From Hyphomicrobium sp. (GTDB lineage: Bacteria > Pseudomonadota > Alphaproteobacteria > Rhizobiales > Hyphomicrobiaceae): a stretch of DNA of 64,000 bases. The stretch lies in assembly GCF_003987725.1 (NCBI RefSeq), contig NZ_RXJH01000005.1; one strand, written 5' to 3'. The notes under the pieces are model-generated. The model made no database searches. It had not been told where the DNA came from and was given only the letters and a program-made list of their open reading frames with translations. The position numbers and the translations under genes were made by a program. Positions 1,666 to 49,092 of the stretch are shown here, piece after piece. Numbering within the stretch: the first letter of the stretch is position 1; each line of letters starts with the position of its first letter.

Positions 1666-4600
1666 ATGGGGAATATTGGGCCAGCCGAAAGGCCCAATAG
1701 GAATTGGAAGCAGTTTGACATGTTGAGTGGCGGAGCCCGCTTTCGCTCATTTTCCGAAATGGGGCAGCTCTATATAGCCGATCAGGACGGCATGGCACGC
1801 GCCGCTGCCGTAGCGGTCGTTTTCGGCATCGTCGCCTATCTCTCCGCCGCTTTCACCCAAAATAGCGATGGCATAGCGACGGTTTGGCCGGCCAACGGAA
1901 TTGCGCTCGCTGCCGTCATTCTTGCCCGGCGGCCATGGCGCCGGCATCAGATCATTGCCCTGACGCTCATCGCCAACATCGCCGCGAATTTCCTCGCCCA
2001 CCGGGGCCTCGGGTCGAATATCGGTTTCGCCCTATCGAATACGTTCGAAGTTTATGTCGCCTTCGGCGTTCTAAGACTCATGGAAGCCGAACCGTTCGAA
2101 TTCCGAAATGTTCGCTTCCTGAAGTCATTTTCGATCGCCGCCATTGCGGGCTCGGTTATTGCCGCAGCGATTGCGACTTTCCTCGTCGCGACGACGCACG
2201 AGACCATCACACTGCACGTCTTCACATCATGGCTGTTTGCCGATTTGCTCGGCCTGCTGACCGTGACACCGGCCATCGTCCGCCTTCGTCAGTCGCAACT
2301 GGCGCCCTCTTGGACGGCTCCGAAATGGGAAATCTTCGGGCTCTTCGCAGCACTCTCGGCAACGATGGTTCTGGTTGTAGGGCTTCCGCAGCCGTTCCTC
2401 GCATTCCTCATCATGCCGGTCCTCGTGCTGATCGCATGCCGCCTCGGCCCCAACGCAACGTCGGCGGCAACGCTGCTGATGTCGGCGGCCGTCCTCGCGT
2501 GCACGGCCGGCGGTCTCGAAGGCGGCCAGCACATCACGGCGTTCGCCGTGCTGACCGACATCCAGTTGATGCAGCTCTTGATCCTCACGGCCTTCCTGAC
2601 GGTCATGCCGCTTGCCGAAACGATCGATACACAAGCCCGCCTGCAGGAGCGCCTCTCCGCCGAGATCGCGCTGCGCGATGAGCTGAACGATCACCTGCAG
2701 GCTCAGGAACAAGCGATTTCGACGCAAAAGTCGGAACTCGAGAAGGCCCACAACCGGCTGAAAGAAGCGATCGAAATCCTGCCCGAAGGCATCGTCATCC
2801 TCGACGCCGACAACCGCTACGTCGCCTGGAACAAGAAGTATGCCCAGATCTATCACCGGGCCATTGATACCATTGTCGTCGGCCGCAGCCTCGAAGACGC
2901 CGTGCGGATCGGCCTCGATCGCCAGATGTATCCCGAGGCGTTCGGGCGGGAGGAAGCCTGGCTCGCCGAACGCCTCAAAAATCTACGCACGCCCGCGGCT
3001 CCGCATGAACAGCTGCTCGATGATGGCCGCTGCTATCTGATCGAGGAATGCCGCACGAGCGAAGGCGGTCTGATCAGTCTGCGCATCGACATCACCGAGA
3101 TGAAGCAGCGTGAAGCCTCGATCCGGCTTCTGTTCGAGAACAATCCGTTGCCGATGTTCGTCGTCAGCCGCGACCGGATGGCAATCCTCGCCGTCAACAA
3201 AGCTGCCGTTTCGCACTACGGCTATACGCGACGGGATTTCTCGCGCCTGTCGTTGCGCGACATTCAGAATGGCGAGCTTCTTCTGCCGTTCGAAGGCAAC
3301 GTCCAGAACACCGGCCAAACCGACGATCCGCAGCTCTGCAAGCATTATCGCCGCGACGGCCGCTCGATGGAGGTCGAAGTCTATGTTCGGCCGCTCGTCC
3401 ATGACGGCCGCGACGCCCTGCTGATCGCCGCCATCGACGTGACGGAGCGGCGAAAAGCCGATCGCAAGGCCGCCTACATGGCGCGCCACGACGCACTCAC
3501 GTCGCTTCCCAACCGTCACCTGCTCGCCGAACGCATGCAACTCGCGATGGCGCGCGCCAAGCGCGGCGATCGCATGGCGCTCCTTCTCGTCGACCTCGAC
3601 AATTTCAAGGTTGTGAACGATACGCTCGGCCACGCCGCCGGCGACGAGCTGTTGCAGGTCATGGCGGACCGATTGAAGAAAACGCTACGCGAAACCGATA
3701 CCGTGGCGCGGCTCGGCGGCGACGAATTCGCCGTGCTGGTCGTCGATCTTGATCATCCATCGAGCGCAACGAAACTGGCGCAGCGACTGATCGGCATCCT
3801 GAGCGAACCGGTGCGCATCGGCAGCAAGGACGTGGTGTGCGGAGGCAGTGTCGGCATCGCCATGGCGCCGGACCATAGCTGCGATCCAATCGAGCTATTC
3901 CGCCTTGCCGATCTCGCACTCTATGCCGCCAAGGAAGATCAACGTGGAACCTATCAGCTCTTCGAGCGCGAGCTGGACGCCAAGGTCAAGGCACGCAACC
4001 TCCTAGAAACAGAGGTGCGCGACGCCATCAACAACAACGAGTTCGAACTCCACTATCAGCCGATCTTCTGCGTGAAGACGATGACGGCGGTCGGAGCCGA
4101 GGCGCTGCTGCGCTGGCGGCACCCGCGTCTTGGGCTTGCCTCTCCCGCGGATTTCATTCCGATAGCCGAAGAAATCGGCATGATCGCCGATCTCGGGGCG
4201 AAAGTTCTCCGCCAGGCCTGCAAGGAAGCGATGTCGTGGCCGGAGCACACCAGCATCTCGGTCAACGTCAGCGCCATCGAGCTCGAAGCGGAAAGCTTCG
4301 TCGACACCGTGAAAATGGCGCTCGCCGAGTCAGGACTGCCGAGTCACCGCCTCATCATCGAGGTCACCGAATCCACGATCATGAAAGACGTCCAGCTCGC
4401 GACCCATATTCTGCGCCAAGTCTGCGACTTAGGTGTCGAGATCGCAATGGACGACTTCGGAACGGGCTATTCCTCGCTCAGCTCCCTGACGAAAGTGCCC
4501 TTCCAGAAAATCAAGATCGATCGCTCATTCGTCCGCGATTTGGCGATTTCGATGGAAGCCCGCGCCATTCTGTCGACGATTGTCGAGCTTGCACGCACGC

Positions 4601-4770
4601 TCGGCATGCGCACCACGGCCGAAGGCGTCGAAACGGCCGAACAGTTCGAGATCGTCAAGGATTACGGTTGCACGTTAGCGCAAGGGTTCCTGTTCCATCG
4701 GCCGCAGCCCGCCGAAACGATCCGCGAAATTTTCGCGGCCCCGCAGGACATTCATCAGCACGCAGCCTAA
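1666..4770 (+). CDS. MASE1-PAS-PAS-GGDEF-EAL c-di-GMP signalling protein (true start probably further downstream)
   Basis: TM region with the WPANGIALA (MASE1) motif, two PAS-like segments, and intact GGDEF, EALLRW and DDFGTGYSS motifs. Confidence 0.9.
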   Translation: MGNIGPAERPNRNWKQFDMLSGGARFRSFSEMGQLYIADQDGMARAAAVAVVFGIVAYLSAAFTQNSDGIATVWPANGIALAAVILARRPWRRHQIIALTLIANIAANFLAHRGLGSNIGFALSNTFEVYVAFGVLRLMEAEPFEFRNVRFLKSFSIAAIAGSVIAAAIATFLVATTHETITLHVFTSWLFADLLGLLTVTPAIVRLRQSQLAPSWTAPKWEIFGLFAALSATMVLVVGLPQPFLAFLIMPVLVLIACRLGPNATSAATLLMSAAVLACTAGGLEGGQHITAFAVLTDIQLMQLLILTAFLTVMPLAETIDTQARLQERLSAEIALRDELNDHLQAQEQAISTQKSELEKAHNRLKEAIEILPEGIVILDADNRYVAWNKKYAQIYHRAIDTIVVGRSLEDAVRIGLDRQMYPEAFGREEAWLAERLKNLRTPAAPHEQLLDDGRCYLIEECRTSEGGLISLRIDITEMKQREASIRLLFENNPLPMFVVSRDRMAILAVNKAAVSHYGYTRRDFSRLSLRDIQNGELLLPFEGNVQNTGQTDDPQLCKHYRRDGRSMEVEVYVRPLVHDGRDALLIAAIDVTERRKADRKAAYMARHDALTSLPNRHLLAERMQLAMARAKRGDRMALLLVDLDNFKVVNDTLGHAAGDELLQVMADRLKKTLRETDTVARLGGDEFAVLVVDLDHPSSATKLAQRLIGILSEPVRIGSKDVVCGGSVGIAMAPDHSCDPIELFRLADLALYAAKEDQRGTYQLFERELDAKVKARNLLETEVRDAINNNEFELHYQPIFCVKTMTAVGAEALLRWRHPRLGLASPADFIPIAEEIGMIADLGAKVLRQACKEAMSWPEHTSISVNVSAIELEAESFVDTVKMALAESGLPSHRLIIEVTESTIMKDVQLATHILRQVCDLGVEIAMDDFGTGYSSLSSLTKVPFQKIKIDRSFVRDLAISMEARAILSTIVELARTLGMRTTAEGVETAEQFEIVKDYGCTLAQGFLFHRPQPAETIREIFAAPQDIHQHAA

Positions 4771-5043
4771 TGATCGAACGAAACTCCGACCGGCAGACCT
4801 CAAAAACACGGGTCACATCGGACGCGAAATTCTTTTCGTCAATCCTCCAAACGGAGGATGGCAACGCGCGTTGGCTGCGGTAGCTAAATCACATTGCATC
4901 TACCTATGTATTCTAGCGTACGATTGCACAGGGCCGCTTTTGGTACAGTTTTATGACAGAACCAAAGGCGGCCCCTTTGTCTTCCGCAAATTGATGGACA
5001 GTCGCTCGCCGTCGCACGCTGAATAATTCAGCGCGGACGCGCG

Positions 5044-5397
5044 TCAATCGGCCTTTGACGCTGCGTTGAAGGCCGTCTTGCTTGCATCGACGGGAACGCG
5101 ACGCGTGCTGCAGTTCGCGCGAGAGATGTATACCTTCACCCCGTCCGCCCTCACCCCGGCGACGAGATCGCCCGAATGCACGGCGGAAGCGACATGTTCG
5201 CAGACATCGCGCGGCATCCACTGCGTCTGGATTTCGCCATTCTCGAGCGTTGCGACGAGCAGCGACTTGCTGTCGAGGGCAACGGGCGTTTCCTGATGTG
5301 AAGAATGGTCCGGCTTTGTCGGCAAGCCGACCGTGCCACTAGCGGACGCGATAAGAACTACGGATGCAACGATTTTCGAGGCCGTCGTACCAAACAT
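5044..5397 (-). CDS. Secreted hypothetical protein
   Basis: MFGTTASKIVASVVLIASAS... signal-like N-terminus within the longer ORF of the track. Confidence 0.5.
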   Translation of the reverse strand: MFGTTASKIVASVVLIASASGTVGLPTKPDHSSHQETPVALDSKSLLVATLENGEIQTQWMPRDVCEHVASAVHSGDLVAGVRADGVKVYISRANCSTRRVPVDASKTAFNAASKAD

Positions 5398-5542
5398 ACT
5401 CAATCTCCCAGAACTCCGCTTAAAGCAGCATGGAAGTTCCGCATCCGCCAACCGCTCGTGCACTGGATTCCCACACAAAACAAATAGTCCACAGGACACT
5501 GTGCAAAACCGGGCGCACGTTTGGCCCGTCAATCGAGCGCAC

Positions 5543-12593: not shown

Positions 12594-12668
12594 TGGTGAG
12601 CCCGGTTGGGATCGAACCAACGACCCTCTGATTAAAAGTCAGATGCTCTACCGCTGAGCTACGGGCCC
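12594..12668 (-). tRNA. tRNA-Lys(UUU), copy 1
   Basis: 75-nt cloverleaf GGGCCCG...CGGGCTCACCA, anticodon loop CTTTTAA, encoded CCA. Confidence 0.97.
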
Positions 12669-13457: not shown

Positions 13458-13532
13458 TGGTGAGCCCGGTTGGGATCGAACCAACGACCCTCTGATTAAA
13501 AGTCAGATGCTCTACCGCTGAGCTACGGGCCC
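13458..13532 (-). tRNA. tRNA-Lys(UUU), copy 2
   Basis: Identical to copy 1. Confidence 0.97.
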
Positions 13533-28488: not shown

Positions 28489-28619
28489 TACGCAGAACCT
28501 CGCGATTCCACCAACGACTGTCCCTCTATCCCTGAAATCCTGCCTCCGCTCGCGGCCAGCTCGTGAACCACTTCCGCACTTGGCGGCCGGCTCGCGGAAC
28601 GCGAGTCGCCAAGTGCCAC

Positions 28620-38423: not shown

Positions 38424-38521
38424 GAGAATTCCCCGTTTTTATTATTGTCCACGGGGATCACATTAATTGATCCGCATGAGGAGCGATACGGGCGGGATGG
38501 AGTGATCCGCTGCCGCCGAGC

Positions 38522-38677
38522 AACTTACCCTCCCCCTTGCGGGGAGGGTGGCGCAAAGCGCGGCTTCCGGCCGGCTACGCGGAGCGGAGTCGGAAGCCGC
38601 AATCAAAAAGCGCCGGGTGGGGGCAGACCGAGAGAATTCCCCTCCCCCTTGCGGGGAGGGGTTAGGGGTGGGGGTCC
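38522..38677. repeat. REP-like multi-hairpin palindrome
   Basis: Two ccctccccct(t)gcggggaggg hairpins flanking a gcggcttccg/cggaagccgc-type stem. Confidence 0.75.
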
Positions 38678-39246: not shown

Positions 39247-40263
39247 TCAAAGGAACTTGAGAGACTCTTGAGAGAGACCCTTCCTTACAATTAGCGTGGG
39301 AAGATCTGCGTCGTCCGCCAGCTTTGCTGCTTTAAGGACGACCTTGCCTTGCTTAAGGGCGTCTCCGATTGACTGGCCACTAGCTAGTGCAGCGTAAAAG
39401 CGAGTCGAGAACAATGTTGCGGCACTGTCGGTGATTGAATCCGACATCGCAACGACTGCCCGTACTGTCTTCAAAAAAACATCCGCGCCCACCACTGTAT
39501 CGCACGCATTGAAGACCAATAGGTCCGGTGGGGAATGCGTAGCATCGATGGTCTCTTGCACCACCCCGAAGTCAAGCTCCACTCCCCCGTCTTCATCCAC
39601 ATCTCGATTATCGAATAATACCGCAGAGTCCCCACCATGCCCCGAAAAATGTATGACATTGGGCTTAAATTCATTGAGCGCGTCGAGCAAATCCTCTAAT
39701 CGCGCTGCGGGCAAATGTCGGACTTCGACATAATCGCGATTAGGCGACTTCTTTAACTCTTTGAGCACGTCACGCATTTCCATATCTGTACGCAGCGCAG
39801 CATCGCGAACCGGATTTGTAGTTAGGAACGCTATCCGAAGTTTCGCAGAACTCTTACCTTCTCTACTGGGTTTGGATTTTTGTGGATGGGGCATGCGAGG
39901 CCGGACAAATGAGAGACCTCCTGCGGCAGAAACTACGGGCGGAGAGGATGACGTAAATTTCTCCATCTTGCTAGGATCAGCGACGAATCGAACGATTTTG
40001 TCCTTATTATGCTGATAAAACTCAATTTGCTTGTACGCGGTAACGCCATCCTTCTTTTCCTGGTCGAATAAGCCAGCCTTTTTTAACGCCACGCCATTCT
40101 TCAAAACTTGCTCTCGAGTAAGCCCTACAGAGACGGCTATCTCGTCGACGGATTTAATGCGCGATTTGTGGTAATAAACCTCCTTGAAGATCGCCAACTT
40201 CAGCTCGGAACGACCGATAAATTCAACGGCTTCAATTATTTTCTTGTCTAATGCCACTATCAT
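39247..40263 (-). CDS. wHTH-CHAT (caspase-like protease) protein
   Basis: C-terminal CHAT with the IHFSGHG (His) and LVFNAC (Cys) dyad; N-terminal SVDEIAVSVGLTREQV..NGVALKKAGL winged-HTH pattern. Confidence 0.88.
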   Translation of the reverse strand: MIVALDKKIIEAVEFIGRSELKLAIFKEVYYHKSRIKSVDEIAVSVGLTREQVLKNGVALKKAGLFDQEKKDGVTAYKQIEFYQHNKDKIVRFVADPSKMEKFTSSSPPVVSAAGGLSFVRPRMPHPQKSKPSREGKSSAKLRIAFLTTNPVRDAALRTDMEMRDVLKELKKSPNRDYVEVRHLPAARLEDLLDALNEFKPNVIHFSGHGGDSAVLFDNRDVDEDGGVELDFGVVQETIDATHSPPDLLVFNACDTVVGADVFLKTVRAVVAMSDSITDSAATLFSTRFYAALASGQSIGDALKQGKVVLKAAKLADDADLPTLIVRKGLSQESLKFL

Positions 40264-40460
40264 TTTTCCTTGAGCGCGGCCTTCGAAAACATTTTACTTA
40301 TTTGGCTTTGGGAGGTGCCCAACGCGACGGCAATGTCGTTTTGCGTGTGCTCTTCCTTATTCTTGTTGAGGAGAGCGTAGACGAGCAGCTTCTTTATCGC
40401 TTGCAGCTCCTCTAGCAACGCATTCTCGTTTGATTGAGCCACGATAGCGACCTTTCTCAA
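40260..40460 (-). CDS. Small HTH protein 5
   Basis: LLEELQAIKKLL + TQNDIAVALGTSQSQISKMF; TTG start overlaps the upstream stop. Confidence 0.8.
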   Translation of the reverse strand: MRKVAIVAQSNENALLEELQAIKKLLVYALLNKNKEEHTQNDIAVALGTSQSQISKMFSKAALKEK

Positions 40461-40654
40461 TCCGCAGAAATCGAGCCGTGATTGACTTCTTTCGCGATCC
40501 CCTTCGGCAACATCCTGCTTAAGGTGGCCTCACTTACTCCGAGAGTCGCGGCAACCTGCTTTTGCTTATAACCGGAAGCCAAAGCCTGCAATATTAGCAG
40601 TTTCTTTATTGCGCTTAATTCCTCAAGAAGCGCTTCATCGGGCGAATGCGCCAT
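40457..40654 (-). CDS. Small HTH protein 4
   Basis: LLEELSAIKKLL + KQKQVAATLGVSEATLSRMLP. Confidence 0.85.
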   Translation of the reverse strand: MAHSPDEALLEELSAIKKLLILQALASGYKQKQVAATLGVSEATLSRMLPKGIAKEVNHGSISAD

Positions 40655-40655
40655 C

Positions 40656-40823
40656 TTACGTTTCCCTCTGTTTGAATTTTAGACCTTTGGGGAACATCCG
40701 GCTGACTTGGCTTCGATCAATACCAAGAGCCGAACCTATCTGCTCTTGAGTTGCCCCCTGCCAGAGGAGAGTGAACACCATCAACTTCTTAATCGCCTCA
40801 AGTTCCTCGGCAATTTTTTCCAT
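40656..40823 (-). CDS. Small HTH protein 3
   Basis: IAEELEAIKKLM + TQEQIGSALGIDRSQVSRMFP; GAGG RBS. Confidence 0.85.
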   Translation of the reverse strand: MEKIAEELEAIKKLMVFTLLWQGATQEQIGSALGIDRSQVSRMFPKGLKFKQRET

Positions 40824-40833
40824 TTGAACCTCA

Positions 40834-41058
40834 TCAGTTTTTCTTCTCTCGTTTAGCTGCCGACAGCGCAACGCTGACGGTATTTGGCGTAGAATCGCAA
40901 AGCGCTGCAATTTCCTTCGGCGCTAAACCAGCACGACTTAGGATGATCGCCTTTTCTTTCAGACTTGGGACGTTTGCGACCAGAGAAAGAGCTGTAAGCC
41001 GTATCAATACATCCAGTTTTGATTCGACCCGACTCATGACGTCATTTTCTTCGTTCAT
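40834..41058 (-). CDS. Small HTH protein 2 (sigma-region-4/LuxR-like HTH)
   Basis: KLDVLIRL + AGLAPKEIAALCDSTPNTVSVALS. Confidence 0.8.
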   Translation of the reverse strand: MNEENDVMSRVESKLDVLIRLTALSLVANVPSLKEKAIILSRAGLAPKEIAALCDSTPNTVSVALSAAKREKKN

Positions 41059-41357
41059 TTCATTCGCTCCTTGGTCAGCGGGTAGATATGCAGGGGCTTG
41101 CTCTCGTTCTTATCCCCCAGCTTGACAACGATGCCTGCTTCGACCCAGCGGGCCACCGTCTTGCTGAAATTGCTGGGATCAAGCTTCAATTCTTTGGCAA
41201 TTTCGCCCTGCAGTCTCGTCCCGTCACACAAGTTGTATGCGGCAATCTGCGTTTCACCAGGACTTTTCGGAGCCACAATTTGCAGAACCTTATCTTCAGA
41301 GAATGCTTGCCTCGCAGTCATGCTCAAGATCGCCCGCAACAAAGTTTCTTCGTACAT
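41055..41357 (-). CDS. Winged-HTH protein 1 (MarR-like)
   Basis: QGEIAKELKLDPSNFSKTVARWVEAGIV; GGAGG RBS. Confidence 0.85.
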   Translation of the reverse strand: MYEETLLRAILSMTARQAFSEDKVLQIVAPKSPGETQIAAYNLCDGTRLQGEIAKELKLDPSNFSKTVARWVEAGIVVKLGDKNESKPLHIYPLTKERMK

Positions 41358-41423
41358 CTTCCCTCCTATGACCCTACGGATAAGACCTATCAACAACGCT
41401 GATGACGATGAGAAATCGCGTAA

Positions 41424-41446
41424 TAAATTGAAGTTACTTAATTTTA
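41424..41446. promoter_or_regulatory. Imperfect AT-rich palindrome, candidate operator of the HTH-CHAT operon
   Basis: TAAATTGAAGT-T-ACTTAATTTTA; 9 of 11 positions pair. Confidence 0.4.
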
Positions 41447-41598
41447 TAGGATTTCACGCTTTGCCAGAACTTACTGGCCTTAGCTCTAGGGTGGGACCCG
41501 CGACTTTCAATTTATCCGCCCCAACGCGGCACATGGGGCGTCGGCTGATAGTTTCAAGTGGATTTTCTGGATTTTTTCTCAGTTTTCACGGATGCTCT

Positions 41599-41780
41599 AA
41601 AAAATCTTATCCCCGCCCTCTCCACTTCCCCCATAATCCCCTCACCCATCCGGCAAGGGCATCGCGCGAGAAGTCTCGATGGCGCTTCAGATGCCCACGC
41701 GCATCCGCGCTTAGACTGCGCTTCAGATGCCCACGCGCATCCGCGCTTACGCGCCGCTCGGATGGGGCAGCCTCACCCGC
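41599..41780 (+). repeat. Structured repeat R1 (5' part only, with an internal 32-nt tandem duplication)
   Basis: Shares AAAAATCTTATCCCCGCC...CATAATCCCCTCACCCATCCGGCAAGGGCATC and CGGATGGGGCAGCCTCACCCGC with R2/R3. Confidence 0.85.
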
Positions 41781-41957
41781 GAGCCTTTACGTGCCTGCGT
41801 CTGACCCAAATCGGACACGCATCGATGGCCATGCGGTGCGGGGTGCGCCTCATAAATCGCACTGCGGAAAATATCTGTGCCGGCAACGGTCCTTTACTTG
41901 GCAACCGCGAAGCACTCGACTAGCGTTCGCGCAGATTTGTCCGCACGGGGGGTTGCA

Positions 41958-42254
41958 ATGCAGGTTTTCAAGTTGGGCTTCGTGGCCGCGGTTATGGTGT
42001 CCGGACTTTCGGCGATGGCTCAGGCAGCCGAATGTACGAGGGTCGGAGCCATTGGCGATAACGTCACCCACGATTTGGCAGTTCTGTTCTCCACAAACGC
42101 ACTTAAGAATACGATCGCCGGGCGAGGACTTATAGGGAAGGGGCCCGTGAAAACCACCTGCACCGGCTCGGGGATGATTGAGTGTCACTCCTCGCAGATG
42201 GCCTGCAAGGGCGGGACGCCCGCAAGCTGCTTAGGCGCCTGGCTTTGCTTCTGA
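41958..42254 (+). CDS. Small secreted Cys-rich protein
   Basis: Signal peptide ending AQA; six Cys in the mature region. Confidence 0.7.
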   Translation: MQVFKLGFVAAVMVSGLSAMAQAAECTRVGAIGDNVTHDLAVLFSTNALKNTIAGRGLIGKGPVKTTCTGSGMIECHSSQMACKGGTPASCLGAWLCF

Positions 42255-42360
42255 ACGCGGAGCTAGACGTGGACTCGTGATGCTTTGGGCTACTTTTGGC
42301 CCGAAGCAGACCGCTTACCCCCGCGCTCTCTATTTGCACTTGGCGCCTTCTACGTCCCGC

Positions 42361-42770
42361 AAAAAAAACTTATCCCCGCCCCCATCGCTTCCCCCATAAT
42401 CCCCTCACCCATCCGGCAAGGGCATCGTGCGAGGCGTCGCGCGGCGCTCGGATGGGGCAGCCTCACCCGCTCGCGGAACGCGCGCGATGCGGTCAAGGCG
42501 GAAAGCAGGTCCGCACGGCATGAGAGAAACCGTGTGCGGAATATCCCGCTTCATTAAGTGACCTGCCGGAAACCTGATCTCTGGCTGTCACGGAGCGGAC
42601 CGGTTCCGAGACTTGAATTGCGAAGACCCAACGCCGCGGAACCCGTCCGCTTCGTGCTTTATTGCTTGCACACGGCGACTCCCCTCCAGGGAGCCGGCCG
42701 CCGTGTGCATTTGCTGTTTCGCCGGCCGCCAGCACATGCCTGCCGCGTCGTTCTTCGTTCAGTTCCGCGA
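42361..42770 (+). repeat. Structured repeat R2 (410 nt; candidate ncRNA or non-autonomous element)
   Basis: Near-identical to 45461-45841; multiple hairpins. Confidence 0.9.
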
Positions 42771-42799
42771 ACCTATCGCCGGGCGCAGACTGGTCCTTT

Positions 42800-45277
42800 T
42801 CACTGAACCGATAGGGCGAACTGCGTTTTCAGCTGTTCAAGATCCCCCCGCTGTTTAGGCGTAAGCTCATCCTGGCCGAGCTTTATATCGACCTCATCAA
42901 TCGTGCCGCTGAATTTGAAAGGCATCTTGGCGTCGTACTCGTCGATGACCGGCGTGCCGGTATCCATGCCGACATCAAAGCTCTCATCGAGCGTGAATTT
43001 GCCAACCGGCGACGTCTGCTCGATGCGGCCGTCGGCGACCTTCTGGCCGTCGACCGATAGTGTTCCGCGCCCGCCCTTGCCGAGGCCGCCGCCGTCATAA
43101 ACGAAATCGAAATCTATGACGTGTTTGCCGGGGCCGAGCTTTTCAGAACCAATAAATCGGGTCTTGTCCGGTCTTTGTTTCGGATACTTTGCTCCGTCCT
43201 GGTTGGTATAGGCATAGGCGAACATCGGTTTTCCATCGAGGACGAGCAGGCTCCAGCCGCCGAACCGCCCTCCTTGTGTCGCCAGCACGCCGTCGGCACC
43301 GCCTTGCGGGATCTCCACGTCCGCGGTCACGCGAAACGATTTATTGTGCACGTCCGGAGAGTTCGCCTCGGGAATTCGGAACATGCCTGGGTAATACTTG
43401 AAATCGGTTTGCCCACGGAGAAGATTTGGCCGGATTCCCGGATCCATGCGGTCGGCGAAACTGGAGTCGATCGGGAGCACGTTGTATTTGACCGCCTCGA
43501 TTAAAAAGCGGGATTGCAGATCGAGAAGCTTCTCCGGATGGTCCTTCGCCACATTCTTGGCTTCACTGAAGTCGTCAGCGATATTGTAGAGTTCCCACTT
43601 GTAGTCATCGGGGTCAGGCGCCGTGCCCAACGTTTGCCAAGGCAATCGCCCAGGTGTGGTGCAGGCGATCCAACCATCATGATAGATCGCGCGGTTTGCG
43701 GTCATCTCGAAATACTGCGTGGTTCGCTTCGTCGGGGCCTTTGCGTCATCGAAGGTATAAACCATGCTCGTGCCTTCGATCGGCTTTTGCGGCGTGCCGT
43801 TGACCAGCATCGGGGCTTGGATGCCGGCGGCATCTAAAATGGTCGGCACGATATCGATCACGTGATGGAATTGCGAACGCATTTCACCGCCGGTCTTGAT
43901 GCCCTTTGGCCAGTTGATAACGAGGCCATTGCGCGTCCCGCCGAAATGCGATGCAACCTGCTTGGTCCATTGGAAAGGCGTGTCCATCGCGTGCGCCCAA
44001 CCGATCGGATAGTGATTGTAGGTCTTGTCGCTGCCGAGTTGATCCATCATCGACACGAGGAATTCCAGGGACTCAGGTGCGAACTGCGCCGAGACCTCGT
44101 TGGTCGTTCCTTGCATCGTACCTTCAGCGCTGGCGCCGTTATCGCCCTCGAGGTAGATGACGAGCGTGTTGTCCAGCTGGCCGGATTTCTCGAGAGCGTC
44201 GATGATGCGGCCGATCTCGTAATCGGACTGGGCCACGGTGGCGGCATACACTTCCATCATCCTCGCATAGACCTTCCTTTGGTCGTCATTCAGCGAATCC
44301 CAGGCGGGTATTTCCTTCGGCCGCGGGGTTAGGGTCGTGTTGGTTGGAACGACGCCAAGCTGAACCTGCCGCGCCAGCGTTTCCTCCCGCACCTTGTCCC
44401 AGCCCTGATCGAACTTGCCTTTGAACTTGGCAATCCAGTCCTTCGACGCCTGGTGCGGAGCGTGACTGTTGCCTGGCGCGAAATACAAAAGGAAGGGCTT
44501 GTCGGGCGCCGCCGCATGCTGCGTGCGGATCCAGTTGATGGAGCGATCCGCCAGGTCGTGGATAAGGATATAATTCGGGTCACCAAATGGCGGCAGCACC
44601 GGCGTGGTATTCTCGAACAACGCCGGATGGAACTGATCCGTATCGCCGCCGAGGAAGCCGTAGAAATACTCGAAGCCGAGTCCTCCCGCCCACTGATCGA
44701 AAGGCCCGCCTGGACCTTGCATCCATTCCGGAACCAAGTGGTGCTTGCCAAACCACGCGGTGTTGTAGCCATTGTCCTCAAGAATGTTGCCAATCGTGGC
44801 GGCGCTCTTTGGCATGATCGATGTGTAGCCCGGATATCCCGTGGCGAACTCGGTAATATTGCCCATGCCAACGCTCTGATGGTTGCGGCCCGTAAGGAGC
44901 GCAGCACGCGTTGGCGAACATAGCGCGGTCGTGTGGAATTGATTGTACTTCAGCCCAGTCTTCGCCAACCGATCCAATGTCGGCGTCGGAATTGGACCGC
45001 CGAACGTGCTGGCCGCGCCGAAGCCAGTATCATCTGTCATGATCAGCAGGACATTTGGCGCGCCCTTGGGCGCAGTCACCGCCTTCGGAAAGTCCGGTGT
45101 CGAGTCGCTAGCCTTGCGTCCAATCACGCCCCCGAACTGGGGTTGAGGCATTGGCAGCACGGCGGAACCGCCGACGGGATGGGGCGACTGCGCAAGAGCT
45201 GAATTTGAAAGTGAAATGCAGCCGCACGCGGCGGCAATAATTGCTGCGCTTTGGAGAAGACATTTTGAGGAGGCCAT
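42800..45277 (-). CDS. Arylsulfatase (Cys-type, formylglycine-dependent)
   Basis: Signal peptide, PNVLLIMTDD, CSPTRAALLTGR, YLEGDNG; C-terminal LamG-like extension. Confidence 0.93.
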   Translation of the reverse strand: MASSKCLLQSAAIIAAACGCISLSNSALAQSPHPVGGSAVLPMPQPQFGGVIGRKASDSTPDFPKAVTAPKGAPNVLLIMTDDTGFGAASTFGGPIPTPTLDRLAKTGLKYNQFHTTALCSPTRAALLTGRNHQSVGMGNITEFATGYPGYTSIMPKSAATIGNILEDNGYNTAWFGKHHLVPEWMQGPGGPFDQWAGGLGFEYFYGFLGGDTDQFHPALFENTTPVLPPFGDPNYILIHDLADRSINWIRTQHAAAPDKPFLLYFAPGNSHAPHQASKDWIAKFKGKFDQGWDKVREETLARQVQLGVVPTNTTLTPRPKEIPAWDSLNDDQRKVYARMMEVYAATVAQSDYEIGRIIDALEKSGQLDNTLVIYLEGDNGASAEGTMQGTTNEVSAQFAPESLEFLVSMMDQLGSDKTYNHYPIGWAHAMDTPFQWTKQVASHFGGTRNGLVINWPKGIKTGGEMRSQFHHVIDIVPTILDAAGIQAPMLVNGTPQKPIEGTSMVYTFDDAKAPTKRTTQYFEMTANRAIYHDGWIACTTPGRLPWQTLGTAPDPDDYKWELYNIADDFSEAKNVAKDHPEKLLDLQSRFLIEAVKYNVLPIDSSFADRMDPGIRPNLLRGQTDFKYYPGMFRIPEANSPDVHNKSFRVTADVEIPQGGADGVLATQGGRFGGWSLLVLDGKPMFAYAYTNQDGAKYPKQRPDKTRFIGSEKLGPGKHVIDFDFVYDGGGLGKGGRGTLSVDGQKVADGRIEQTSPVGKFTLDESFDVGMDTGTPVIDEYDAKMPFKFSGTIDEVDIKLGQDELTPKQRGDLEQLKTQFALSVQ

Positions 45278-45460
45278 TCACACACTCCATTGACCCTCCA
45301 TGCTCGGCCCCGAAGCATTTTGTACATCCAAAAATTAGATCGTAGCGGCGGAAAAAAATGGGCCACAAGGTTTGGCAACGACAGATTTCATCAGCGTTCT
45401 GATTTTCAAGTAAACCGACGGTTAAAGCCCACCGAAATGGGTTTATCCTTTCCGCGTCTC

Positions 45461-45841
45461 AAAAAAATCTTATCCCCGCCCTCTCCACTTCCCCCATAAT
45501 CCCCTCACCCGTCCGGCAAGGGCATCACGCGAGGCGTCGCGCGGCGCTCGGATGGGGCAGCCTCACCCGCTCGCGGCACGCGCGCGATGCGGTCAAGGCG
45601 GAAAGCAGGTCCGCACGGCATGAGAGAAACCGTGTGCGGAATATCCCGCTTCATTAAGTGACCTGCTGGAAACCTGATCTCTGGCTGTCACGGAGCGGAC
45701 CGGTTCCGAGACTTGAATTGCGAAGACCCAACGCCGCGGAACCCGTCCGCTTCGTGCTTACCTGTTGGTGCTGGCGACTCCCCTCCGGGGAGCCGGCCGC
45801 CAGCACATGCCTGCCGCATCGTTCTTCGTTCAGTTCCGCGA
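45461..45841 (+). repeat. Structured repeat R3 (381 nt)
   Basis: Direct-repeat partner of R2. Confidence 0.9.
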
Positions 45842-45879
45842 GCCGGCCGGTTGCACACGCCTGTTGCTTCGCTCGTCCG

Positions 45880-46158
45880 CTAGAATTCCTGGTAACGGGC
45901 GGCCGACTCCGGGCTCGATACATCAGCGGCGTCGCTGCGCGCGCTTTGATCCGCGAGCTGGAGATTCGCAAGCTGAGACTTGAGCGAGGCAATGTCAGCG
46001 CCGATTTTGTCCGCCGTCTGGTTGCAGGTCGTCCTCGCCTGCTGCATCGACTTGGCGTCGATCTGCTGCTCGAGCGCAGCCTCCTTGGCTTTGCTCGACA
46101 CGTCCCCCGCCGTAACGCGCGGGGTCGCACAAGATGTACACCCAACCGCCGCAATCAT
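45880..46158 (-). CDS. Coiled-coil hypothetical protein, possibly a lipoprotein; start uncertain
   Basis: Cys-containing N-terminus and a helical body. Confidence 0.4.
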   Translation of the reverse strand: MIAAVGCTSCATPRVTAGDVSSKAKEAALEQQIDAKSMQQARTTCNQTADKIGADIASLKSQLANLQLADQSARSDAADVSSPESAARYQEF

Positions 46159-46353
46159 CCCCGCAATCCCCCTGCTGGCCGACCGAGACCATACCGCACG
46201 CCTACGAACGCTTTCCCGGCCTCGTTACACGTTCGGAAAAAGAAAAAATGGCGGACGCGAACGGCCGCCTCATGTCGGAACCGGCCCGGCTCGATCGTCT
46301 TAAGAATACCAAGCGGCGACCCCATAGAGACGTCTTTCAGGGAGACCAAAAGC

Positions 46354-46842
46354 ATGCCCAAGAACACGATTTGCGTCTGGTACGACAAGGACGCCGAAGC
46401 CGCCGCCCGCTTCTACGCCGCGACGTTCCCCGACAGCTCCGTCGGCAACATCATCCTCGCGCCGGCCGACTATCCCTCCGGCAAGGCGGGCGACGTCATC
46501 CTCGTCGAATTCACCGTCGCCGGCATCCCGTGCATCGGCCTCAACGGCGGCCCGGTGATGAAGCACAGCGAAGCCTTCTCGTTCGCGATCTCAACCGACG
46601 ATCAGGAGGAAACCGACCGCTACTGGAACGCCATTGTCGGCAACGGCGGCCAGGAGAGCGCGTGCGGCTGGTGCAAGGACAAGTGGGGCGTCAACTGGCA
46701 GATCACGCCGCGCGTCCTGACCGAGGCGATGGCCATCGGCGGAGACGAAGCCAGGCGCGCCTTCGAAGCCATGATGACCATGCGCAAGATCGACGTCGCC
46801 GCGATCGAGAAGGCCCGTCGCGGTCGAGCAACTCGCGGCTGA
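46354..46842 (+). CDS. VOC/PhnB-like (3-demethylubiquinone-9 3-methyltransferase family) protein
   Basis: AEAAARFY..TFPDS, LNGGP, ACGWCKDKWGVNWQITP. Confidence 0.92.
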   Translation: MPKNTICVWYDKDAEAAARFYAATFPDSSVGNIILAPADYPSGKAGDVILVEFTVAGIPCIGLNGGPVMKHSEAFSFAISTDDQEETDRYWNAIVGNGGQESACGWCKDKWGVNWQITPRVLTEAMAIGGDEARRAFEAMMTMRKIDVAAIEKARRGRATRG

Positions 46843-46869
46843 GCAACTCAGGTCCGAACCCTGATCAGC

Positions 46870-47274
46870 CTATTCGCGTGTCGCGACCCAGTCGCCGTAG
46901 CAGATGCCTGAAGGTCCCGTTCCGCGCCATCTGCCGTGGGCTTCATAGCTGTCGAACCATCCGACCCCATAGGCGACGCGCGGTCCTGTCACGGCCCTGA
47001 GTGAGGTGCTGCCCGAAGGCGACACGCGTCCGCTCAAGGCAATCGGATTGAAGGCATAGGAACCGCTCGTCGATGAAATGCGGCCGCCGACAATGAGCAT
47101 GCCGACAGGAATGGTCCCGCAGTGGCCACTGGTGGTCACTGCGGTCATGTTCCAAACGCCGTCGAACCGGGAGGCGGCGCCAGCTGGAGCTGTGAAAGCA
47201 ACGACGGCGAATGACACGAATGACACGAAGAGCGCGCGAACGCGCGAATGATGTTCGATCATGTGAAACCTCAT
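46870..47274 (-). CDS. Secreted beta-rich hypothetical protein
   Basis: Signal peptide; SRFDGVWN...C...C.GDW. Confidence 0.7.
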   Translation of the reverse strand: MRFHMIEHHSRVRALFVSFVSFAVVAFTAPAGAASRFDGVWNMTAVTTSGHCGTIPVGMLIVGGRISSTSGSYAFNPIALSGRVSPSGSTSLRAVTGPRVAYGVGWFDSYEAHGRWRGTGPSGICYGDWVATRE

Positions 47275-47418
47275 AGCGTTGCATAAAGGGCCGCTTCGAC
47301 TGGCGGGCCCCCGTGAGGTTCGACCGGAATTCCGCGCGCGCCTGTCAAAGCAGGCGTGTTATACTCCCGCGCAATCGGGGAGCCACGCGCATTCGCCGGC
47401 CGCGGCAATCGCTGCAAT

Positions 47419-47457
47419 AAAAATCTTATCCCCGCTTCATCCTCACACCGCATAATC
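47419..47457 (+). repeat. Repeat head motif R4
   Basis: AAAAATCTTATCCCCGC...CATAATC with the same 22-nt spacing as R1-R3. Confidence 0.65.
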
Positions 47458-47677
47458 ACCACGCTTCGTCTCGACGTCGCGCAGATGATCGTTCGCGCGC
47501 AGCAGAGGTACCGGCCCGAAGCGCGAACGCAGGATTTGGACCATGCTCAAAGTATCTGGCCCCGGCGGCTCGACATCAAACGCACAACTCGGCTTGCGGG
47601 GGCGCGCCCAAAAGAAAGGCAGCGGACCGAAGGCCGCCGCCCATCGAGTTCGCAATAAGCTTCAAAGAATTCCCAAA

Positions 47678-47911
47678 TTAATATCCACCGTTCGGCGCAT
47701 AGCGATGAATACGGCCGCCCGGGAGGTCACGTCCCGAGCTTGTGCCATATCTGCGCAACATCGCGCGGTCGCGCGGGGTCAAGGGCGATCCCGTCCGCAG
47801 CTTTGCGCGGGCGGCCTCGACGCCAGCGATGGAATCCGCCTGAGCCATCGGAGTAACGAACGATGCCAAGACCAACGCTGCGCCAACGGCAGCCATCCAT
47901 TTCCTTATCAT
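47678..47911 (-). CDS. Small secreted protein, E-x-ARA...RYG family copy B
   Basis: AQA-DSIAGVEAARAKLRTG...RDRAMLRRYG; AGGAG RBS. Confidence 0.75.
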   Translation of the reverse strand: MIRKWMAAVGAALVLASFVTPMAQADSIAGVEAARAKLRTGSPLTPRDRAMLRRYGTSSGRDLPGGRIHRYAPNGGY

Positions 47912-48103
47912 CACTGAACTCCTGTCGCGTATCCGGACCGCATGCCTGCGGGCCAGAATGCCCGCGCATGAGTGCCTGGGCATAGCGTTGCCAACTCGAA
48001 CGCCGCGCCGCCGTTCCAACGGGCCGTCGCGGCAGATACCCGCAAACAAAAAAACAGCGGACCGAAGTCCGCTGTCTTCCTCACTCCACGCAATCGGTTC
48101 GCG

Positions 48104-48394
48104 TTAGTAATCGTAAGGGCCGTAATGGCCGCCGCCCGGTCCGACGTAGATACTGACGCCCGGACCTCTGTCATAATAGCCATCATCGTATCCGCGATAT
48201 CCACGCCAGGACTCGTCATTGCCGCCGTAGCGGTGAAGTTTCTCGCGATCCTGGCGATTCAAATAGCGGCCCTGGCGCTCCTTAGCGCGTGCGCCCTCGA
48301 CACTGGATATGGAATCCGCCTGTGCCATCGGGGCAACGAACGCCACCATCAACGCGGCAGTCGCCGCGGCCGTCCAATTCCTCTTCATCAACAA
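48104..48394 (-). CDS. Small secreted protein, E-x-ARA...RYG family copy C
   Basis: AQA-DSISSVEGARAKERQG...QDREKLHRYG plus a Tyr/Gly-rich tail. Confidence 0.75.
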   Translation of the reverse strand: MLMKRNWTAAATAALMVAFVAPMAQADSISSVEGARAKERQGRYLNRQDREKLHRYGGNDESWRGYRGYDDGYYDRGPGVSIYVGPGGGHYGPYDY

Positions 48395-48711
48395 GCTCCC
48401 ATTCGTCTCTCAACGTATCGGTTAATCAGGCGTTGCGCGCCTGCATACATTGCCAACGCCACCGCCCAGCGCCTGTTCCAGCCCGATGGGCGGCCGAAGG
48501 CCACACCAGGCGGAAGGCGCGCGATAAGAGACGAATTTTTAACGCGAATTATCCTCGCGGTCGTCTCAGCGGTTATAATCGGCAAATGGCACAGCCCAAT
48601 CCATTTCGTCTCTGAACGCCTTGTTCCATCTTCGGGCCGCGCGTATCAGGAACGGCGCCGAAAGTTCTCGGAACTGACTGCGCAAAGACAGTCCATGACA
48701 GGGGAAACACC

Positions 48712-49092
48712 ATGAAAGGTCTCGCAAGCCGCTTCTTCGCATCCGCGCTCATTTACGCCGTGCTCGGAATGACCCTCGGCGTCGTCATGGGCATGACGCA
48801 GGACCACGCGCAAATGCCGACGCACGCCCATCTTCTCGTGGTTGGCTGGGTGAGTTTCGCTTTGTTCGGATTTTTTTATCACCTCTTTCCGGGCGTCGCC
48901 GAGACGCGCCTCGCCACTGCACAATTTTGGCTGGCCCAAGCGAGCCTGCTGATCATGCTCGTCGGCCTTTTCCAGATTTTTAGCGGCGGTCCCGGGCTCG
49001 GCGAACCGCTGGCGGGCGTGGGGTCGATCGGCATCCTGTTGTCCATGATCCTTTTCGCGGTCAACGCCTGGCCGGCGGTTCGCAACAACTGA
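48712..49092 (+). CDS. Small four-TM protein resembling a heme-copper oxidase subunit I segment
   Basis: LGVVMG...HAHLLVVGWVSFALFGFFY. Confidence 0.7.
   Translation: MKGLASRFFASALIYAVLGMTLGVVMGMTQDHAQMPTHAHLLVVGWVSFALFGFFYHLFPGVAETRLATAQFWLAQASLLIMLVGLFQIFSGGPGLGEPLAGVGSIGILLSMILFAVNAWPAVRNN

Follow-up and report, generated by a model that had tools for sequence, protein, structure and literature searches.

Copies of a structured repeat in the Hyphomicrobium window

The window analysed here is a stretch of 64,000 nucleotides from Hyphomicrobium sp. (contig NZ_RXJH01000005.1 of assembly GCF_003987725.1), in which copies of a repeat, termed R1 to R4, lie among protein genes, including a sulfatase gene between R2 and R3 and a gene for a small secreted protein behind R1 (Table 1). 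The window probably holds two full (R2 and R3) and two partial (R1 and R4) copies of a gene for a structured non-coding RNA (ncRNA) of ~260-300 nt. A preliminary description, made from the sequence alone, had reported R1, R2 and R3 as copies of a ~400-nt repeat, and self-comparison put all three where it had placed them: R2 (42360-42659) and R3 (45460-45759) are near-identical, with 97% identity across 300 nt, then differ in length by 29 nt, after which 42721-42773 and 45792-45844 are again 96% identical, and R1 (41595-41686 and 41750-41780) matches only the 5' part of R2 and R3. The repeat itself is real, but the unit of ~400 nt is a composite, because this length sums a promoter, a core of ~260 nt, a hairpin and partial hairpin units. 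The shared 5' motif CTTATCCCCGC-N12-CCNCATAATC has four matches in the window (0.00 expected from 100 shuffles), and the fourth of them, at 47425-47457, marks R4, which had been overlooked.

R1 carries a 36-nt tandem duplication (2 x 36 nt, 41682-41753) in the apical part of its first hairpin, P1, and scores just 36 bits with the covariance model of the RNA type found in R2 and R3 (type 1). Two related loci (L077 and L079) have full-length RNAs whose first hairpin contains this tandem insertion, and at a third (L072) a full-length RNA sits at the R1 position; R1 is therefore a truncated copy, which is now the promoter and leader of the 98-aa protein gene (its product was assigned to no Pfam or NCBIfam family). 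R4 has lost both the 3' arm of P1 and the terminator. At their 3' ends, intact relatives of its subfamily (L006, L055 and L058) have GCGGAGCGCG...CGCGCTCCGC and then a T-rich tail, which in L006 is T8.

Table 1. Features of the repeat copies and of associated elements in the window (promoter-like boxes, RNA cores and 3' ends are predictions)
Feature	Coordinates	Strand	Remarks
R1 promoter-like box	41600..41637	+	CTTATCCCCGC 41606-41616, CATAAT 41632-41637; motif match
R1, 5' fragment	41644..41786	+	P1 with tandem duplication, then 13 nt of core, where homology stops
Gene for 98-aa predicted secreted, Cys-containing protein	41958..42254	+	downstream of R1
R2 promoter-like box	42361..42400	+	A-tract, CTTATCCCCGC 42369-42379, CATAAT 42395-42400
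R2 RNA core	42407..42665	+	type-1 model, 311.8 bits at 42402-42665
R2 3' hairpin	42667..42709	+	outer arms TGCACACGGC/GCCGTGTGCA around GACTCCCCTCCAGGGAGCCGGCC, then UUUGCUGUUUC
Partial hairpin unit common to R2 and R3	42720..42773	+	GCCGGCC, 3' arm, pyrimidine-rich tail; end of similarity
Sulfatase gene, 825 aa	42800..45277	-	PF00884, E 1.8e-65; between R2 and R3, outside the RNA
R3 promoter-like box	45463..45500	+	CTTATCCCCGC 45469-45479, CATAAT 45495-45500; motif match
R3 RNA core	45507..45765	+	type-1 model, 302.4 bits at 45502-45765
R3 3' hairpin	45766..45806	+	arms GGTGCTGGC/GCCAGCAC around GACTCCCCTCCGGGGAGCCGGCC; partial units to ~45883
R4	47419..47560	+	intact promoter-like box (47425-47457), then decayed remnant of a Hyphomicrobium RNA of the second subfamily
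Box of like architecture	48549..48579	+	TTATCCTCGC, 15 nt, TATAAT; followed after 133 nt by the gene (48712-49092) for a membrane protein of 126 aa
Hairpin-family member	28576..28616	-	unlinked to the RNA
Hairpin-family member	38563..38600	-	unlinked to the RNA

Structure and conservation of the RNA core

In R2 the core has its predicted start at A42407 and folds into P1 (42408-42456), P3 (42510-42540), a long-range helix that joins 42493-42498 to 42573-42577, and a terminal hairpin (42592-42653) followed by GUGCUUUAUUGCUUG. All of the stems quoted in the preliminary description were present, namely the 5' stem CCCATCCG/CGGATGGG, in which a G-U pair is tolerated in R3, and the R2 stems TCCGCACGG/CCGTGTGCGGA (42510-42540) and GAGCGGAC/GTCCGCTT (42593-42652). 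Homologs of the core were collected as 18 distinct sequences from Hyphomicrobium genomes and metagenomes, with a mean identity of 88%. The proposed structure comprises 57 pairs in eight helices, and 99.0% of its cells are paired in the alignment, compared with 28-51% when the partners are slid. Covariation among the 18 homologs was above the shuffled level, with changes on both sides in four pairs (1.3 +/- 0.7 in shuffles; 2 of 500 shuffles reach four). One of the core pairs, 42493/42577 in the long-range helix, is U-A in five and A-U in 13 sequences, and four contigs from RNA runs also carry A-U. Several loops contain GGA and GAGGG-like motifs, as judged by eye. Counts of G-U pairs were considered as evidence for the strand and dropped, because folding of the alignment on both strands ended in a draw.

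The element might instead be a gene for a small protein or the decayed fragment of a coding sequence, since ORFs (open reading frames) of 75-90 aa overlap it, and decay of such a sequence had been named in advance as a finding that would speak against an RNA. These ORFs are not common to R2 and R3, however, and gave zero Pfam matches at E values up to 0.1, in line with the initial impression that no convincing ORF is present; the variable sites of the core are spread over the three codon positions without 3-nt periodicity (31/35/30, p = 0.80), and its indels are mostly of 1-2 nt. We therefore give a coding origin hardly any credence.

No known RNA family accounts for the repeat. At the gathering threshold, Rfam 15 gave two tRNAs only in the window and nothing at the 18 related loci; at E values up to 10 the matches were at chance level, and none recurred at the element. 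A tRNA/tmRNA search found none at the repeats, in agreement, as far as tRNA goes, with what had been noticed before, and literature searches on the motif, on small RNAs of Hyphomicrobium and on RNA motifs returned nothing relevant.

A covarying hairpin at the 3' end

Behind the core lies a hairpin for which the preliminary description had claimed that both arms changed together between R2 and R3, and the quoted arms were confirmed (TGCACACGGCG/CGCCGTGTGCA at 42667-42709 in R2, GTGCTGGCG/CGCCAGCAC at 45768-45806 in R3). The claim holds beyond the two copies: the hairpin follows the core at a distance of 6-12 nt in all 18 homologs, among which the outer arms form at least six different complementary pairs and several inner stems covary, with the arms broken or replaced in three homologs. 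Its general form is x9-GACTC..GAGCCGGCC-x9', and one to three partial copies follow it. The idea that the difference between R2 and R3 was a swap of a REP module irrelevant to the RNA was revised in view of the fixed spacing and the covarying arms.

The hairpin belongs to a dispersed family of intergenic imperfect palindromes with a conserved core, of which the window has four copies, two of them unlinked to the RNA, and in L006 a hairpin of this type lies behind the T8 terminator with which the type-2 RNA ends. Being modular and present also away from the RNA (28576-28616 and 38563-38600), it may therefore be represented in R2 and R3 by different members of the family. Several contigs from RNA runs stop exactly at its 3' edge, at 42708-42709 in the window and at the matching point in L032. 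We read the hairpin as a member of a terminator/REP-like family serving as the 3' end of the transcript, and that of R2 is probably the true end.

The 31-mers of the hairpin core (42670-42711) reach a depth of 4,400-5,500, compared with ~400-1,100 for other contigs of the RNA runs; given this roughly ten-fold excess, the hairpin family would therefore be present in many or in highly expressed transcripts. A second short hairpin repeat, CCCTCCCCCTTGCGGGGAGGG, occurs at 38516-38548 and 38628-38660 and flanks the REP-like palindrome at 38563-38600.

A conserved promoter-like box and its distribution

Each copy begins with a box composed of an A-tract, CTTATCCCCGC, a C-rich spacer of 15 nt and CATAAT, which we take as a putative promoter with sigma70-like behaviour of its -10 element. 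The architecture occurs at five sites between 41.6 and 48.6 kb and nowhere else in the 64 kb; the fifth, at 48549, is kept in L053 as TTATCCCCGC, 15 nt, TACAAT. Across loci, variants of the -10-like hexamer (GATAAT, GATATT, CATACT, TACAAT and TATAAT) retain A2 and T6. In a logo of the box loci, the six positions upstream of the box are 55-71% A, corresponding to the A-tract, and a C-rich discriminator lies downstream of the hexamer; in nearly all of these loci a stable hairpin starts 5-8 nt past the hexamer. To our knowledge, the spacing or the boxes of sigma32, ECF, sigma54 and MerR-type promoters all misfit. The sequence TTATCCCCG agrees with a DnaA box at seven of nine positions, which is a lead only.

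In a one-genome-per-species collection an exact scan found the box in 57 stretches, against an expectation of about one (2 x 596 Gb scanned for 20 fixed bases). Hyphomicrobiales account for nearly all of these stretches (Hyphomicrobium, Devosia, Bauldia, Bosea, Aurantimonas, Jiella, Fulvimarina, Pelagibacterium, Maritalea and Pseudolabrys), and a few matches lie in plainly mis-binned contigs of metagenome-assembled genomes (MAGs). In most box loci the next 250-450 nt are non-coding, GC-rich and strongly folding, and in some (such as L006, L055 and L058) they finish in a clear hairpin with a T-rich tail. Several genomes have two or three copies; the three of OZ244147.1, which lie in one chromosome, are near-identical between the box and the last hairpin and unrelated beyond. 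Neighbouring genes of the box loci are not conserved across genera. At two loci, L030 (a Devosia MAG) and L057 (an Asticcacaulis MAG), a protein gene without a Pfam family follows the box directly, and family searches assigned none of the proteins behind the promoter box. In another MAG (L024) the box, at 3709-3741, lies ~190 nt before a tRNA-Leu gene.

A model of the 5' domain, seeded with the Bauldia and Aurantimonas sequences and those of L034, L040 and L054, recovered the non-seed sequences of Bosea, L044, L007 and L010 at the correct place (E 0.002-0.09). When the arms of the 5' hairpin were placed by the -10 box and the GCGG/GCAGCC motif, the mean helix was 7.9 bp with the sequence's own partner and 5.8 bp with that of another subfamily (Mann-Whitney p ~1e-7, for sequences that are not independent). 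This comparison replaced a test against shuffled downstream sequence, which was powerless (mean z -0.55) because the C-rich 5' ends pair with any G-rich sequence. A GA(G/A)GGG loop motif recurs across the box RNAs, and together with the shared architecture it suggests their possible common descent across the order.

Mobility and variability of the region

A structured repeat of this kind could be a non-autonomous mobile element (MITE-like, that is, resembling a miniature inverted-repeat transposable element, or of the IS200/IS605 type) with an outward-facing promoter, an alternative that the preliminary description had put beside the RNA. Several near-identical copies per genome with sharp borders of identity, hairpins within the element and the variable gene cargo that adjoins the copies would fit such an origin. 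Against it, a search for an inverted repeat at the unit ends found none, as had been stated before, and the sequences flanking R1-R3 and the three copies of OZ244147.1 showed no target-site duplications and nothing in common beyond the A-tract; the neighbours of the copies include no transposase or TnpB-like gene, and BLAST against plasmid and phage collections gave zero matches. Type-1 and promoter copies are clustered within the 64 kb and not dispersed, the positions of R1, R2 and R4 are orthologous between species, and the identity between paralogs runs from the promoter to the 3' hairpin only. Because it has neither terminal inverted repeats nor target duplications, the element is not MITE-like, and we consider a mobile origin very improbable.

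The surroundings of the copies are nevertheless variable among close relatives. In the closest of these, L053 (Hyphomicrobium sp. 2TAF46) and L076, the order R1-gene-R2, which is kept in L009 as well, is followed directly by the PhnB-like gene that starts in the window at 46355, and the segment 42757-46354 with the sulfatase gene, R3 and a 92-aa gene is missing. Judged from this direct junction of R2 and the PhnB-like gene in the relatives, the segment would be an insertion or duplication specific to the present genome. Short-read contigs carrying the sulfatase gene are ~2.7-2.9 kb long and end ~160-215 nt outside the gene, that is, at the repeat edges on each side, so the repeat explains why short-read assemblies break at the locus.

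It is conceivable, then, that the repeat acts at the level of DNA, as a promoter cassette plus terminator/REP hairpins forming a hotspot of recombination or insertion, with a functionless transcript. The clustering of the copies in a variable region agrees with this, as do the absence of an island at 38-41.5 kb and of the segment 42757-46354 from L009, L013, L053 and L076, the position of R2 and R3 as direct repeats flanking the sulfatase gene, and the occurrence of the same promoter type before protein genes (at 48549, in L030 and in L057). A bare promoter cassette, however, does not need a core of ~260 nt that is 88% conserved and whose changes keep the pairing, and R4 illustrates how a core decays when it is not maintained. 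We regard this explanation as improbable, though less so than a mobile origin.

Evidence of transcription

Expression was examined in unstranded Logan contigs from RNA runs, among which X30 gave the clearest signal. One contig of X30 covers exactly 42411-42674 and another stops at 42344, leaving the promoter (42345-42410) uncovered; just two further contigs of the same organism fall within the 64 kb. Many RNA-seq and metatranscriptome assemblies contain the element, and a type-1 RNA ~90% identical to R2 was found inside multi-kb contigs in stranded RNA-seq of 'organism O' and in sludge metatranscriptomes.

In X29, the sole near-identical piece of the whole 64 kb is a 374-nt contig with a depth of 222, which joins 45564-45802 to 45853-45953 and skips 45803-45852.

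The main rival to a stand-alone RNA gene is a cis-acting leader or attenuator, i.e., a structured 5' leader in which conditional termination at the 3' hairpins governs read-through, as in riboswitches or Brt RNAs. A protein gene directly follows R1, and a same-strand gene follows the RNA in L053 (PhnB-like, behind the R2 homolog), L018 (a membrane protein) and L032 (PhnA/YjdM-like); some contigs from RNA runs continue through the hairpins, and CCGCUUC occurs twice and could, on a reading of the sequence, pair alternatively with GGAGCGG. This alternative pairing is lost in L063 and L069, however, the downstream genes vary across genomes and genera, R2 and R3 face convergent genes in the window, and Rfam scans gave zero matches to known riboswitch models. 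A leader function is thus unlikely, although it is the most probable of the alternatives.

Interpretation as a probable family of RNA genes

Taken together, R2 and R3 are likely to be paralogous stand-alone genes for a structured ncRNA of ~260-300 nt in Hyphomicrobium, each with a conserved promoter of its own. The candidate ncRNA of the preliminary description is supported by the promoter-like box, by a core with 18 homologs, 99% pairing and four compensatory pairs, and by the lack of codon periodicity and of Pfam and Rfam matches; a putative promoter and a putative terminator are represented, the former by the box, non-canonical as it is, and the latter by 3' hairpins with U-rich tails. The family of structured RNA genes with its distinctive putative promoter is undescribed and probably genuine, and is neither MITE-like nor a coding remnant.

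Several observations weigh against this interpretation. The covariation support for the core is real yet modest, because 38 of the 57 pairs never vary; covariation in the core is sparse, the swap between U-A and A-U may represent a single event, and folding of the alignment on both strands gave similar energies. As to the promoter, a scan of 41400-48800 for canonical TTGACA-N16-18-TATAAT gave zero matches, and the upstream box differs from TTGACA and is spaced 19-20 bp from the -10 element. As to the transcript, the X29 contig continues beyond the point where R3 is predicted to end and enters the minus-strand gene for the 92-aa lipoprotein-like protein at its 3' end, and other contigs from RNA runs take in the promoter region or run through the unit. 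Since the contigs are unstranded, we infer the strand, start and end of the transcript, and assign it to the plus strand on the basis of the promoter, the sister RNAs' T-tailed terminators and X30. Finally, the type-1 covariance model misses the RNAs behind the box in other genera, and the 5'-domain model misses those of Hyphomicrobium, Devosia, Fulvimarina and the Rhizobiaceae MAGs, so homology across the order is no more than possible.

For the stand-alone RNA genes we propose the following mechanism. Transcription of each copy would start at a promoter of its own (A-tract, CTTATCCCCGC, 15 nt, CATAAT) and proceed rightwards, and the RNA would begin ~7 nt past the -10 box with a stable 5' hairpin, fold into several conserved helices, one of them long-range, and end at the long GC-rich hairpin and/or at the covarying terminator/REP-like hairpin behind it. 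R1, a 5' fragment with promoter and first hairpin, would serve the small secreted-protein gene as promoter and leader, and R4 would represent a sister subfamily in decayed form. Promoters of this type appear to drive comparable multi-copy structured RNAs in many Hyphomicrobiales and also a few protein genes; from this distribution, the RNAs most likely belong to a regulon under a conserved transcription factor or sigma factor. The product might act as a stable trans-acting regulatory RNA that pairs with target mRNAs via unpaired segments of strongly conserved sequence, or it might bind and titrate a protein; a stable trans-acting regulatory or protein-binding RNA of a box-defined regulon is our best guess.

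More tentatively, the CTTATCCCCGC-N15-NATAAT box could define a regulon extending over the whole order Hyphomicrobiales, whose main products would be structured RNAs of a class not recognised before: large (250-450 nt), multi-copy, fast-evolving and abundant, binding proteins or ribosomes and controlled by a dedicated transcription factor or sigma factor. All would be built alike, with a 5' hairpin at +1 whose GA(G/A)GGG loop is purine-rich, then a middle part that varies, a stretch rich in A and, last, a long hairpin. We put this forward as a speculative extension of the Hyphomicrobium family, and as doubtful.

Multi-copy families of small RNAs (sRNAs) with a shared promoter or upstream box are exemplified by Qrr, RsmX/Y/Z and CsrB/C, and in alphaproteobacteria by the alpha-r14, 'cuckoo' and CcsR RNAs. 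The present family resembles these in that a genome has several intergenic RNA genes, paralogous and often in tandem, in a context that varies, and in a promoter or upstream box that is more conserved than the RNA body. It differs from them in the larger size of its RNAs (260-450 nt); the CCUCCUCCC loops of the cuckoo RNAs are lacking, no regular array of GGA loops is evident, and Rfam models gave zero matches. With REP, BIME and intrinsic-terminator families the RNA shares a 3' hairpin that is a dispersed intergenic palindrome with covarying arms and tandem partial units, but here the hairpin is the 3' module only, and the promoter and the 260-nt core fall outside that family. Like MITEs, the repeat is short, non-coding and present in several copies, whereas it differs from them in its clustered and orthologous positions and in having no terminal inverted repeats, target duplication or partner transposase; from riboswitches and other cis leaders it is set apart by an inconsistent class of downstream genes, some of them convergent. 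The Brt RNAs, confined to Bartonella, are highly structured, multi-copy RNAs of ~200 nt with a terminator-like 3' region, always located 10-18 nt upstream of a gene for an XRE-type regulator (PMC5387305). Likened by description, both are lineage-restricted, multi-copy structured RNAs of Hyphomicrobiales members with a terminator-like 3' end, but no XRE-type helix-turn-helix gene, and no conserved gene of another kind, follows the copies described here.

Although water systems, sludge and soil commonly harbour Hyphomicrobium and its relatives, no matching family is present in Rfam 15 or was found in the literature searches; the new structured RNA family now has a seed alignment of 18 sequences. 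The sharply conserved non-canonical box is a marker of RNA genes, and also of a few protein genes, throughout the order, so that its regulator could be fished for directly. The locus also offers a worked example of RNA-gene direct repeats that bracket gene-sized insertions in a hypervariable region.

Other features of the region

Upstream of the repeats, 39247-41396 (minus strand) encodes a CHAT-domain protein (338 aa, PF12770) and then five small helix-turn-helix paralogs with an N-terminal EELxAIKKLL motif. Its GC content of 0.48-0.53, compared with ~0.60 in the surroundings, and its absence from this position in L009, L013 and L076 make it look like an acquired island, possibly for defence; the helix-turn-helix genes (40260-41396) are divergent from R1 and absent in the relatives. 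In L032 (Hyphomicrobium sp. GJ21), the PhnA/YjdM-like zinc-ribbon gene (2742-3113, minus strand) is preceded by the type-1 RNA together with three REP-like hairpins, and in the three RNA runs that cover this gene its contigs are very deep (~240-1200x). Small envelope proteins are abundant in the region, namely the products of the 98-, 92- and 134-aa genes and two paralogous small secreted proteins without family assignment (47678-48049 and 48104-48394, minus strand). Two tRNA genes on the minus strand (12597-12668 and 13461-13532) have the same Rfam score of 73.5 bits; this and their spacing of 864 nt suggest that they arose by local duplication.

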